A model generated the notes under the pieces. That model made no database searches. It was not told the origin of the DNA and was given only the letters and a program-made list of their open reading frames with translations. A DNA stretch of 64,000 nt from IMG/VR virus record IMGVR_UViG_3300030117_005585, positions 13,754-77,753 of that record. The stretch is one strand, 5' to 3'. Positions 1 to 60,690 of the stretch are shown here, one piece after another. The stretch is from a virus. The position numbers were made by a program, and so were the translations under genes. The stretch's first letter is position 1. Each line of letters begins with the position of its first letter.

Positions 1-174
1 ACCACCTTTGTCAGCCATCTTATTGTAAGCAGTTTTTGCCGGATGGTCATCTGGCTGCTTTTTAGCAGCACCTGCAGTCATCTCCTGAGACTCACCCTCT
101 TTGTCTTTATACTTAATGATTTCGTCATCATCAACCTCATTGATACTTTGTGCAATTTCTAATAGTGAAATCAT
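1..174 (-). CDS. Phage hypothetical protein, N-terminal part (runs off window); possible internal head protein
   Basis: Not in ORF track. ATG at 174 overlaps the upstream stop; MISLLEIAQSINEVDDDEII... stays open to position 1. Confidence 0.75.
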   Translation of the reverse strand, partial: MISLLEIAQSINEVDDDEIIKYKDKEGESQEMTAGAAKKQPDDHPAKTAYNKMADKGG

Positions 175-359
175 TAATCTTTCTCCATCATAATTTCTGT
201 TTTAAGACTTTCCAACTGTTCTATCCATTGGTTAAGTCTTCTAATCATGTAATTTTTATCTACATCTTTTTTCTGTATCTCAACCTGCCATCTTTTTAAC
301 AAAGTTGATATACTAAAAAGAGTGTCCATATAGGACTTCTTTTTATCTTCAAACGGCAT
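174..359 (-). CDS. Phage hypothetical protein
   Basis: 61-aa ORF with GGAG RBS, in head gene operon. Confidence 0.7.
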   Translation of the reverse strand: MPFEDKKKSYMDTLFSISTLLKRWQVEIQKKDVDKNYMIRRLNQWIEQLESLKTEIMMEKD

Positions 360-370
360 AGTGACTCCGA

Positions 371-796
371 TTATTGTAACTGCCCTACTTTATTCGCTAG
401 CTTTACTAACCTCTCACTTATTTTGTTTAAAGCCTTATGTGTATTCTTCCAATAAGATTGTGAATTCACATTTAATTCATTTTTAAGACGAACATTCATC
501 TTAACTAGTTTATCTAAATTATTGAGACTATCTCTAATCTCTCTCATAGAACGACCAATTTTTTGTTTAGGAGTCATTGACTCATCATTTCTATAATCGT
601 GATATCTACCTTCATTGACATAATCGTAGCCAGTTGAACCTAAATCTCTTTTCTTTTTCTTCTTTTTATCTTTCTTTGGGTCTGAAAAGGCATAAGGAGT
701 TTGATATCCTGGCACATTAGCCGAAGTAGAAGCTTCCTCTAACTCTTTTTTGATTAACTCTCTGATAATCTCTTTGAGTTTATCCATTTTTGACAT
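371..796 (-). CDS. Conserved phage head-region protein
   Basis: ATG at 796 follows AAGGAG; contains GYQTPYAF motif; lies downstream of portal. Confidence 0.7.
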   Translation of the reverse strand: MSKMDKLKEIIRELIKKELEEASTSANVPGYQTPYAFSDPKKDKKKKKKRDLGSTGYDYVNEGRYHDYRNDESMTPKQKIGRSMREIRDSLNNLDKLVKMNVRLKNELNVNSQSYWKNTHKALNKISERLVKLANKVGQLQ

Positions 797-44442: not shown

Positions 44443-44514
44443 AGCGGAGGGTAGGAGTCGAACCTACATCTCTTCTTTGGAAAAGAAGTGTGTTTCCTAT
44501 AACACTTCCCCCGC
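44443..44514 (-). tRNA. tRNA-Gly(TCC)
   Basis: Acceptor stem GCGGGGG/CCTCCGC, U discriminator, anticodon arm CTTCT-TTTCCAA-AGAAG, T arm GTAGG-TTCGACT-CCTAC; CCA not encoded. Confidence 0.9.
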
Positions 44515-45190: not shown

Positions 45191-45219
45191 AAGCTACGAA
45201 GAATTTTGCTAATATACAA
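45191..45219 (-). promoter_or_regulatory. Repeated sigma70-type early promoter, copy 1
   Basis: TTGTAT-17 nt-TAGCTT; near-identical at 5 loci. Confidence 0.85.
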
Positions 45220-46559: not shown

Positions 46560-46576
46560 TTTTTTCCTAAAGGTTG

Positions 46577-46985
46577 TGGAGCTGAGGGGAGTCGAACCCC
46601 TGTCCAAGTAGTTTTCTTCAATAAGTCATTTACAGCTTAGCTGGTTTCCATCGGTAGAAACCAGCAAACAACCATGTGGATTCCTTTTACTCAGAACATA
46701 CCCTTTAACTGATATACTTTATACTCGCATATTAGAGTTGGTGTCTAACTCATTTTATGACCGAGTGTTAGACAACTCAGTAACTTATGCAGCGTATGCG
46801 TAAGTTGGTTGGTCTTGATTATAAGCAACCATAGGTGAGTAATCATACTCAGCTAAATGCCAATCAATTACCAACCCGTCTAGCGATTCATCGCCAATTA
46901 GGTTAGTTGAGTTTTATTTAAGAGTCTACTCAAACTCTGCTGCACTTAATTGTCAAATAACACCTGTCGAAACCATTACAGCCCC
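46577..46985 (-). ncRNA. ssrA: tmRNA (~409 nt)
   Basis: 5' GGGGCTGTAATGGTTTCGAC; 3' GGACAGGGGTTCGACTCCCCTCAGCTCCA (G3:U Ala acceptor); tag reading frame 46895-46785 ends YAYAA-stop. Confidence 0.96.
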
Positions 46986-55297: not shown

Positions 55298-55531
55298 CTA
55301 AGTTGCTGACTCATAATATTCTATTAAATCTTCCACTTCATTTTCATTTGGAAATCTATTCAATTGTTTTTTACTGAATATCATACTGTTGTTAAATTTG
55401 ACTTCAAATACACCACCCATACCTTTTATGAGTTCTGCCTTAATACCAAATTGTCTTTCTATTGATTCCCTCAAACTGAGAGCCTGATTTAAGTATCCTC
55501 AGGAAGTGCAATACTCAATACTAACTTTCAT
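55298..55531 (-). CDS. SelW/SelT/SelH (Rdx) family selenoprotein, 77 aa, Sec at codon 11
   Basis: Not in ORF track. MKVSIEYCTS-TGA-GYLNQA...ELIKGMGGVFEV...IFSK...RFP; CxxU plus GxFEV and FSK...FP Rdx motifs. Confidence 0.9.
55464..55498 (-). promoter_or_regulatory. Candidate bacterial-type SECIS hairpin
   Basis: Directly 3' of the TGA: GGATAC-TTAAAT-CAGGCTCTCA-GTTTGA-GGGAATC; CTTAAAT pairs with GTTTGAG. Confidence 0.55.
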
Positions 55532-55976
55532 TCTCTTCCTCTGCAGGTTTATCAACTAAATCTTCTTTCTTAGCTGCTTTCTCAGTTTCTATCTCAGCTA
55601 CAAATTTCTTTTTCTTACCACCATCGTACTCATAGGCATGTCCTTCATCCATTAGAATTTGATTCACACTTTTTAAACCATCTTCTGTTTCAACAAAAAC
55701 CTCACCTAAAACTCTACCGAACTTTCCAGTTCCATGTGAAATAATTTTAAAAGTACCTGCTTCCAATAATTCTTTATTACGGGCTTTAGCAGCAAGTCCT
55801 TTTTTCTTTTCTTCTAAATCACGAGTTCTACTTTCCCAAGTATCGATACCCATATATCTAATTCTTTTTTTGATTTTTAAATCGAAACCTAAATCGATGT
55901 ACGCATCAATTGTATCTCCATCTAAAACTTTAACTAGTGTGCCATTATATTCAAATGACGCTGGTTTTTTAGCCAC
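55521..55976 (-). CDS. Thermonuclease (SNase-like)
   Basis: KVLDGDTID, RIRYMGIDTWE, GKFGRVLG, EGHAYEYDGG. Confidence 0.9.
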   Translation of the reverse strand: MAKKPASFEYNGTLVKVLDGDTIDAYIDLGFDLKIKKRIRYMGIDTWESRTRDLEEKKKGLAAKARNKELLEAGTFKIISHGTGKFGRVLGEVFVETEDGLKSVNQILMDEGHAYEYDGGKKKKFVAEIETEKAAKKEDLVDKPAEEENES

Positions 55977-57590: not shown

Positions 57591-57619
57591 AAGCTACGAA
57601 TAAATTTGCTAACATACAA
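57591..57619 (-). promoter_or_regulatory. Repeated early promoter, copy 4
   Basis: TTGTAT-17 nt-TAGCTT. Confidence 0.85.
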
Positions 57620-60272: not shown

Positions 60273-60690
60273 AATTGAAAATCGGGGGATGTAGGGTTAA
60301 CGATTACCTACAACTTCTAGCTCAGATTTTTTTTACTTTGTACCTAATACCTAAAAGTTACTTTAGTTCTCTTCAAAGTGGTTAGCTTCATTAGAGTGAG
60401 TACAACCTCTGTATTATTGCCTTATCTCTCTGAGTTTAGATTAATTCAGCCACTAAGTGGGATTTGGTTTTATCCTACCCACAACAAAGTCAAAGAATCG
60501 TGTTCTTTAGTTATTCTAGAAGTACATTCCAAGTCGTATGTCTACGAATCGCTTCAACCTACGATATTTAGCAGGTGGATATAGTCACCACAACTTCTTG
60601 GTAGATTCCCTTATGAGCTTCTATGTTTACTCATTATTCAGGCAATCCCATAAAGAGTTAATTACTCTCTTTACTTTCTATTTTCAAATT
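60273..60690 (-). ncRNA. Candidate large structured ncRNA (~415 nt)
   Basis: No credible ORF; the ends pair (TTGAAAAT/ATTTTCAA); many internal and long-range helices; ATATTTATA motif just upstream. Confidence 0.65.

Follow-up and report, generated by a model that had tools for sequence, protein, structure and literature searches.

A marine T4-like myovirus carries a small gene of the Rdx family, and we consider it highly probable that this is a real, phage-encoded selenoprotein gene whose in-frame UGA is read as selenocysteine (Sec), with the reservation that there are no selenium-insertion data and that the host is unknown. The gene lies in a stretch of 64,000 nucleotides (the window) taken from an IMG/VR record of 77,753 bp, which is metagenome-assembled and estimated to be 42% complete. 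The protein has the domain and the fold of SelW-like proteins, its UGA is conserved among diverged relatives, the codons on both sides of the UGA are under purifying selection, a hairpin downstream of it covaries, and the gene is located among phage genes in a genome that uses the standard code. The features to which the text refers are the following (all on the minus strand):

55298..55531, minus strand: putative SelW-like (Rdx family) selenoprotein gene, 77 codons plus a TAG stop, motif C8-T-S-U11
55499..55501, minus strand: in-frame UGA, the proposed selenocysteine codon (codon 11)
55508..55510, minus strand: Cys8 codon (TGC), first residue of the CxxU motif
55468..55482, minus strand: bSECIS-type hairpin CUCUCA-GUU-UGAGGG, over codons 17-22 (A-L-S-L-R-E), 16 nt past the UGA
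55537..55541, minus strand: Shine-Dalgarno sequence GAGGA, 5 nt before the ATG
55521..55976, minus strand: SNase-family nuclease gene (PF00565), upstream of Rdx
57591..57619, minus strand: promoter-like cassette TTGTAT-N17-TAGCTT, probably driving the CobS-like gene, a 94-aa ORF, SNase and Rdx (inferred)

Gene structure and phage context

The Rdx frame starts with an ATG at 55531-55529, has its sole in-frame TGA at 55501-55499 and ends with a TAG at 55300-55298, so that both the coordinates and the translation of the 77-codon frame are exactly those of the original prediction. The ribosome-binding site named there is present as well (GAGGA at 55541-55537, 5 nt ahead of the ATG), and the start does overlap the end of the preceding nuclease gene, an SNase-family gene at 55521-55976, by 11 nt. 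The frame had also been said to fill an otherwise empty gap in the operon, and this holds: under translation table 11, the 232-nt gap between the SNase gene and the next gene contains only a 58-aa ORF with a TTG start (55298-55474). Shine-Dalgarno-like cores (GGAG, GAGG, AGGA or AAGG) precede 41 of the 61 ATG-started ORFs of the window (67%, versus a background of 14%), the typical form among its minus-strand genes being TAGGAGAA.

The carrier is a marine T4-like myovirus. All genes of the window are on one strand, GC content is uniform at about 33%, and portal, large terminase (TerL) and baseplate wedge protein genes are present, and Rdx is surrounded by genes for a GH108 lysin, an SNase-family nuclease and CobT-like and CobS-like (AAA) proteins. 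Among isolates, Microcystis phage Mel-JY01 and the Flavobacterium "immuto" phages come closest, with 51-55% amino-acid identity. SNase is found directly upstream of Rdx in 42 related locus entries, of which some are overlapping cuts of one contig, and this conserved pair suggests translational coupling or a shared role. The flanks of the related loci match the SNase, CobS, CobT, lysin, TerL and baseplate genes of the window, and those contexts that do not match are phage-like too, with Dam methylase, PhoH and glucosyltransferase genes. The stretch was detected in marine and seawater metagenome runs from 16 studies dating from 2014 to 2025, so the phage lineage is not rare. A tblastn search with the Rdx protein gave no match in 50,697 GenBank phage records, and blastn of the region returned only a weak similarity to cyanophage endonuclease. 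Other elements of the window are a complete one-piece tmRNA (46574-46985, minus strand; Rfam RF00023 with 106 bits, and ARAGORN) with a long tag ending in YAYAA, a match to the manA RNA motif (60286-60483, minus strand; RF01745 with 65.1 bits, cut-off 55.2) and a tRNA-Gly(UCC) (44443-44514, minus strand), which is the only tRNA in the window.

The original prediction had held that TGA serves as a real stop elsewhere in this genome, and this is the case for 7 of the 63 long ORFs, the others ending in TAA (47) or TAG (9). Reading through the seven TGA stops adds only 0-12 codons, and table 11 leaves ORFs as long as 2253 aa uninterrupted. Since TGA is an ordinary stop in the window, recoding at codon 11 must be site-specific. 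No second gene combining a TGA with a hairpin turned up on the coding strand when the window was scanned for one.

As for transcription, the motif TTGTAT-N17-TAGCTT occurs five times in the window (minus strand, at 45191, 46079, 50126, 57591 and 60044), against 0.04 copies expected, and these five copies are probably phage promoters bounding gene cassettes. No terminator-like site was found on the minus strand between 58000 and 52800. Given the cassette at 57619-57591 and the lack of a terminator, we infer a single transcript containing the CobS-like gene, the 94-aa ORF, SNase, Rdx and the following genes. In two RNA-library runs (X18 and X19), there were only a few short contigs, with no more likeness than that of relatives, one covering 55298-55472 and none covering the TGA. 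RNA libraries can hold DNA, and these contigs do not show transcription.

Family, fold and conservation of the UGA

For the similarity searches, the protein was used with Cys standing in for the TGA-encoded residue (P0001). The Rdx/SelW profile search proposed with the original prediction was positive for both models, with 69.1 bits for Pfam Rdx PF10262 (cut-off 22.6, E = 3.8e-19) and 56.7 bits for NCBIfam TIGR02174 (SelT/SelW/SelH, CXXU_selWTH; cut-off 34.2). The cut-off of the equivalog NF041051 (SelTWH_Campy) was missed by 0.1 bit (87.9 versus 88 bits), and the gene is thus filed only under the broader subfamily. PHROGs contained no match to the Rdx protein. A profile of the clade run against the PDB matched MIEN1, Atu0228, SAV_2001 and mouse SelW. 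The TGA, which the original prediction had assigned to the second residue of CxxC/CxxU, indeed shares its alignment column with the second Cys of this motif in 2ljk (CEPC) and 2fa8 (CTQC), and the suggested comparison with homologues gave Cys at this site in rare Cys variants as well as in Rdx proteins of solved structure. The two motifs noted downstream follow the TGA in frame, as GGVFEV and FSKK..RFP.

The AF2 model (pLDDT 90.6) has a strand at residues 3-8, the CxxU loop, a helix at residues 14-28, three strands and a C-terminal helix, so that C8-T-S-U11 is predicted to lie in the loop that joins strand 1 to helix 1. When the model was compared by Foldseek, the structures 2fa8, 2obk and 2p0g were matched with TM scores of 0.85-0.89 and an rmsd of about 1 A, and thioredoxins appeared as distant matches only. 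Model and structural matches together meet the criterion of a thioredoxin-like beta-alpha-beta-beta-beta-alpha fold. In Atu0228 (2fa8) and in the proteins from P. fluorescens (2obk) and V. cholerae (2p0g), the redox motif is found in the same loop of the same fold, although these bacterial structures carry CxxC where the phage protein has CxxU. Sequence identity between the phage protein and the solved Rdx proteins, which also include mammalian SelW (2npb) and MIEN1 (2ljk), is 23-30%. Bacterial SelW-like proteins (PF10262, TIGR02174) share with the phage protein the domain, the size, the CxxU motif, the thioredoxin-like fold and a hairpin within the ORF, past the UGA, that has a small G-containing loop; the phage gene differs in being part of a T4-like myovirus and in having a nuclease gene as its neighbour within a transcription unit of the phage. 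The activity of the Rdx family is poorly defined, even for its bacterial members. The product would be a small CxxU thiol-selenol oxidoreductase; a redox role during infection is inferred with moderate confidence, the substrate is unknown, and any specific partner could be named only with low confidence.

The TGA is retained in all seven related IMG/VR contigs (L002-L006, L020 and L023), in which the flanking Cys, Thr and Ser codons vary synonymously. Two of these contigs, L020 and L023, have a CMMU motif, and in them the gene contains TGA at the Sec site and also ends in a true TGA stop. Viral scans based on alignments recovered the same loci as the first viral scan, and a DNA pattern of the hairpin added two contigs; one further match to that pattern, on the GC-rich L021, was rejected as a chance hit. 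Metagenomes were scanned with peptide patterns, some neutral at the site and others favouring TGG/TGY there, which gave 49 loci, 45 of them including the site. The codon is TGA in 44 of these 45 and TGC in the remaining one, with neighbouring codons again varying synonymously. Cys8 is invariant among the relatives, with both TGC and TGT in use. In one of the related contigs (L006:1-128, equal to L017:9368-9243 of IMGVR_UViG_3300020470_003708), the end of a second Rdx-like gene (..MARMPEPNEVEGLIEHF..) lies shortly before the Sec gene; this tandem paralogue is truncated by the contig end, with the CxxC/U region missing.

Among the observations named as capable of refuting the original prediction were TAA, TAG or frameshifts at this codon in related phages, none of which was found in about 50 diverged copies. 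Another of these points, the absence of purifying selection after the TGA, is answered as well: there are no stops or frameshifts in those copies, and median pairwise dN/dS is 0.16 for codons 26-77, compared with 0.24 for codons 1-10. Purifying selection on both sides of the UGA implies that both sides are translated. Sequencing error, which would have been revealed by reads with TGC or TGT, is excluded by independent assemblies and DNA runs that show TGA. A separate assembly (L024) has the TGA at the same codon and encodes a protein 100% identical over Rdx and the five neighbouring ORFs compared, and two marine DNA runs that cover codon 11, at depths of about 167 and 76, list no variant in the TGA and only a synonymous one at the neighbouring position 55502.

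The nearest relatives located in genomes are 45-55% identical and come from GTDB genomes of Tissierella, Thermomicrobiales, a Deltaproteobacteria MAG and a Bacillota MAG (L007-L012). All of them have TGA at the same site, and they are bacterial SelW-like selenoprotein genes that table-11 callers probably cut short.

Public catalogues show this gene family in two distorted forms. In a set of 5.8 billion proteins, 119 of the 120 relatives listed (P0003-P0121) have W at the site, and for six W-form proteins, identity to DNA loci reveals a TGA underneath. The W arises from short contigs being called under code 4, and the Trp at the active site in public catalogues is thus a systematic database artefact. 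Three W-form proteins also end in W, where a real TGA stop was probably read through. Table-11 callers, on the other hand, yield the truncated 58-aa form, which is found in a public cluster, one member of which sits on a contig of 146,781 bp. Between truncation to 58 aa and miscalled Trp, phage selenoproteins are systematically hidden.

The hairpin downstream of the UGA

According to the original prediction, a stem-loop starts directly after the TGA, at the place occupied by bacterial SECIS elements. A bSECIS-type hairpin is supported by covariation, but it starts 16 nt further on, with a 6-bp stem and a 3-nt loop that make up 15 nt in all. Across 36 distinct sequences, standard pairs are present in 216 of 216 cells, and four of the six pairs have changes on both sides (U-A to C-G or A-U, C-G to G-C or U-A, U-A to C-G, and C-G to U-A), so that the check for a bSECIS that had been called for is met by compensatory changes. 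The covariation score is 0.408, compared with 0.177 for shuffled alignments, and none of 500 shuffles reaches the observed value. If the partner arm is slid by 1-3 columns, pairing falls to 17-60%, and RNAalifold, applied to the alignment, predicts the same helix unaided. Several of the compensatory changes cost residues on both arms, as in the case of L18F, which occurs together with R21K. Compensated stems occurring in nature include CUUUCA/UGAAAG and CCGCCA/UGGCGG. Much of this covariation comes from a few diverged subclades, and the number of independent events is therefore smaller than the cell count.

In the loop, the sequences GUU, GGU and GUC were found, always with G in first place. 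Ser19, despite being six-fold degenerate, is encoded by AGU in 34 of 34 sequences, which keeps the G and the U in the loop. Counted from the UGA, the loop begins at 22 nt, inside the range of about 16-37 nt that the published bSECIS model allows. A G in a small apical loop is a feature of bacterial SECIS elements (PMC1088965). The same register is seen in cellular genes: the SelW-like genes of two Thermomicrobiales genomes have 6 of 6 pairs with the loop GGU, and a bacterial contig of 62% GC (with fabH, trmA-like and folE genes as neighbours) has the same hairpin register and loop type, whereas copies from Tissierella form only 4 of 6 pairs in this register. At the protein level, it can be inferred that the hairpin codons are kept or compensated in 163 of 164 Sec forms, and that R21K occurs without a compensating change in 4 of 7 Cys forms; judging from these sequences, the rare Cys variants appear to lose the hairpin.

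Support for the hairpin comes from covariation and not from the stability of a single sequence, for which the minimum free energy fold is no more stable than that of shuffled sequences (z = 0.09). Rfam has no family matching the hairpin site. A stem containing the UGA itself, which appears in the single-sequence fold, was discarded, as it is not conserved in the alignment. Compared with the SECIS of the E. coli fdhF type, the phage element has in common its location within the ORF just after the UGA and the G and U of the small apical loop. It differs in size, since fdhF-type elements are about 40 nt in all, and the phage stem of 6 bp has no evident bulged U and comes without SelB-binding data. 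In mammalian SelW, the SECIS is of the eukaryotic type and is located in the 3'-UTR.

Decoding, alternatives and significance

The steps by which the protein would be made are partly inferential. The Rdx gene is probably transcribed together with the upstream CobS-like and SNase genes from the repeated promoter-like cassette, and a ribosome translating it would arrive at the UGA in codon 11. There, the 6-bp hairpin, located 16 nt downstream and with a G-first loop of 3 nt, is proposed to recruit host SelB carrying Sec-tRNA(Sec). Insertion of Sec would allow translation to continue to the TAG, and the predicted product is a 77-residue SelW-like oxidoreductase with its C8-x-x-U11 centre between strand 1 and helix 1. 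Decoding of the UGA by SelB as Sec, the supply of SelA, SelB, SelC and SelD by the host, co-transcription and a redox role in infection are all inferences.

No tRNA-Sec, selA, selB or selD was found in the 77.7-kb record, which is no evidence of absence given that the record is incomplete, and tRNA-Sec was not found in five related viral records either, all of them incomplete. The only match to the tRNA-Sec model is a sub-threshold one, to the tRNA-Gly(UCC) (29.6 bits, cut-off 47). With no Sec machinery in the record, the host SelA, SelB, SelC and SelD would have to serve. The further claim that the gene restricts the phage to Sec-using bacteria goes too far: where the host lacks Sec machinery, the frame would simply end after 10 codons, which limits the usefulness of the gene and not the growth of the phage. 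Hints about the identity of the host conflict, with the nearest isolates infecting Flavobacterium and Microcystis. On a phage-like contig of 31% GC (L052), an ORF with a T9SS sorting domain (Por_Secre_tail, PF18962; positions 1-729, plus strand) lies beside Rdx (738-968), which hints that some carriers infect Bacteroidota, and no T9SS sorting domain was detected in the present phage record. Shine-Dalgarno motifs before 67% of the genes argue weakly against a Bacteroidota host, and the type IV pilin genes of the window were also counted against it. The one-piece tmRNA is a weak argument against a SAR11 or picocyanobacterial host.

Several other explanations of the in-frame UGA have to be considered. 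The codon might be read through without Sec, if a near-cognate or suppressor tRNA inserted some other residue, such as Trp or Cys, and the hairpin did no more than slow the ribosome or RF2. Some room for this is left by the lack of Sec machinery in the record, by the unknown Sec status of the host, and by the W that public catalogues store at the site, even if it results from code-4 gene calling. However, we hold it to be quite improbable, since the codon falls exactly on the position of the redox Cys or Sec in a family with bacterial members that are established as selenoproteins (PMC1088965, PMC2398784), and Trp would destroy the CxxC/U centre. Moreover, the hairpin has the position, the size and the G-first loop of a bacterial SECIS and is shared with bacterial SelW-like genes, the window encodes no suppressor tRNA but only the tRNA-Gly(UCC), and a Cys codon is one mutation away, yet is present in just 1 of 45 loci. 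More improbable still is that the TGA is a true stop and the gene either dead or expressed only as a truncated protein from the 58-aa ORF (TTG at 55474). This is exactly what table-11 callers give, and many 58-aa entries exist in the public cluster, but purifying selection acts on the 10 codons before the TGA (dN/dS 0.24), which form strand 1 and supply the redox-motif Cys, and these codons are preceded by a Shine-Dalgarno sequence and begin with an ATG. In addition, no TAA, TAG or frameshift is seen in about 50 diverged copies, and in a 58-aa product the active site would be missing, together with strand 1 and half of helix 1.

It could also be argued that the gene is bacterial and owes its phage location to a chimeric assembly or to a mis-binned cellular fragment, considering that the record is a metagenome fragment with 42% completeness and that SelW-like selenoproteins are common in marine bacteria (PMC2398784). 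We give this slightly less credence again: phage genes enclose it on the same strand, with starts and ends that overlap, the GC content stays uniformly near 33%, and dozens of independent assemblies repeat the SNase-Rdx pair flanked by CobS, CobT, lysin, TerL or baseplate genes. A code in which TGA is sense throughout the phage or its host (code 4 or 25) would account for the W called in 119 of 120 listed database homologues, and can for practical purposes be regarded as refuted. The seven long ORFs (of 63) that end in TGA gain only 0-12 codons by read-through, ORFs as long as 2253 aa are intact under table 11, L020 and L023 use TGA in both functions within one gene, and a single TGA in the window has a coding continuation and a hairpin on the coding strand. 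A site-specific UGA read as Sec in a gene of the phage itself remains our preferred explanation.

Selenoprotein genes carried by viruses have a precedent in animal viruses, namely the glutathione peroxidase homologues of the molluscum contagiosum and fowlpox viruses (PMC1802603, PMC6769590; on eukaryotic SECIS elements, see also PMC1802603). In both cases a selenoprotein gene borne by a virus leans on the Sec machinery of the host, which for the phage is inferred, but the animal-virus genes belong to the GPx family and have a eukaryotic SECIS, while the phage gene is of the Rdx family with a SECIS of bacterial type. Genes for thioredoxins and glutaredoxins are known from phages, such as T4 NrdC and the NrdH-type redoxins. 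Like these, the Rdx product is a small redox protein with a thioredoxin fold in a T4-like phage, presumably engaged in thiol-disulfide chemistry during infection; it differs by its family, by having a proposed Sec instead of Cys at the active site and by the absence of any known link to ribonucleotide reductase.

The original prediction considered selenoproteins to be rarely reported in bacteriophages. In the literature searched, they are not reported at all: full-text searches found viral selenoproteins in animal viruses only and none from a virus of bacteria. The papers on marine metagenomes, in which SelW-like proteins are reported to be the most abundant selenoprotein family, attribute no SelW-like genes to viruses and make no mention of phages (PMC1088965, PMC2398784). 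No or very few viral sequences were noted among the selenoprotein families examined in another study (PMC9402790), and a review of prokaryotic selenoproteomes from 2026 uses none of the words phage, virus and viral. Both family and mechanism are known from bacteria, and what is new is their occurrence in a phage.

As regards the ocean, we can offer only as a tentative possibility, rather doubtful on present evidence, that a substantial share of its most abundant selenoprotein family is phage-encoded, with widespread marine myoviruses carrying SelW-like Sec genes as auxiliary redox genes and drawing on host selenium during infection. The Sec and Cys forms of SelW-like proteins were counted at 48:7 in the Sargasso Sea and 427:56 in GOS, as opposed to 4:20 in sequenced genomes (PMC1088965, PMC2398784). 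If the possibility were true, the phage-encoded share would help to explain why Sec exceeds Cys in ocean metagenomes and the reverse is seen in sequenced genomes. The hairpin, with its 15 nt, is a natural minimal bSECIS for study, and since the gene would work only in a Sec-using host, it would be a cheap host-range marker. Sec decoding has been thought of as cellular, and a phage gene that is completed only by the SelB of the host would represent a new dependence of phages on host translation.
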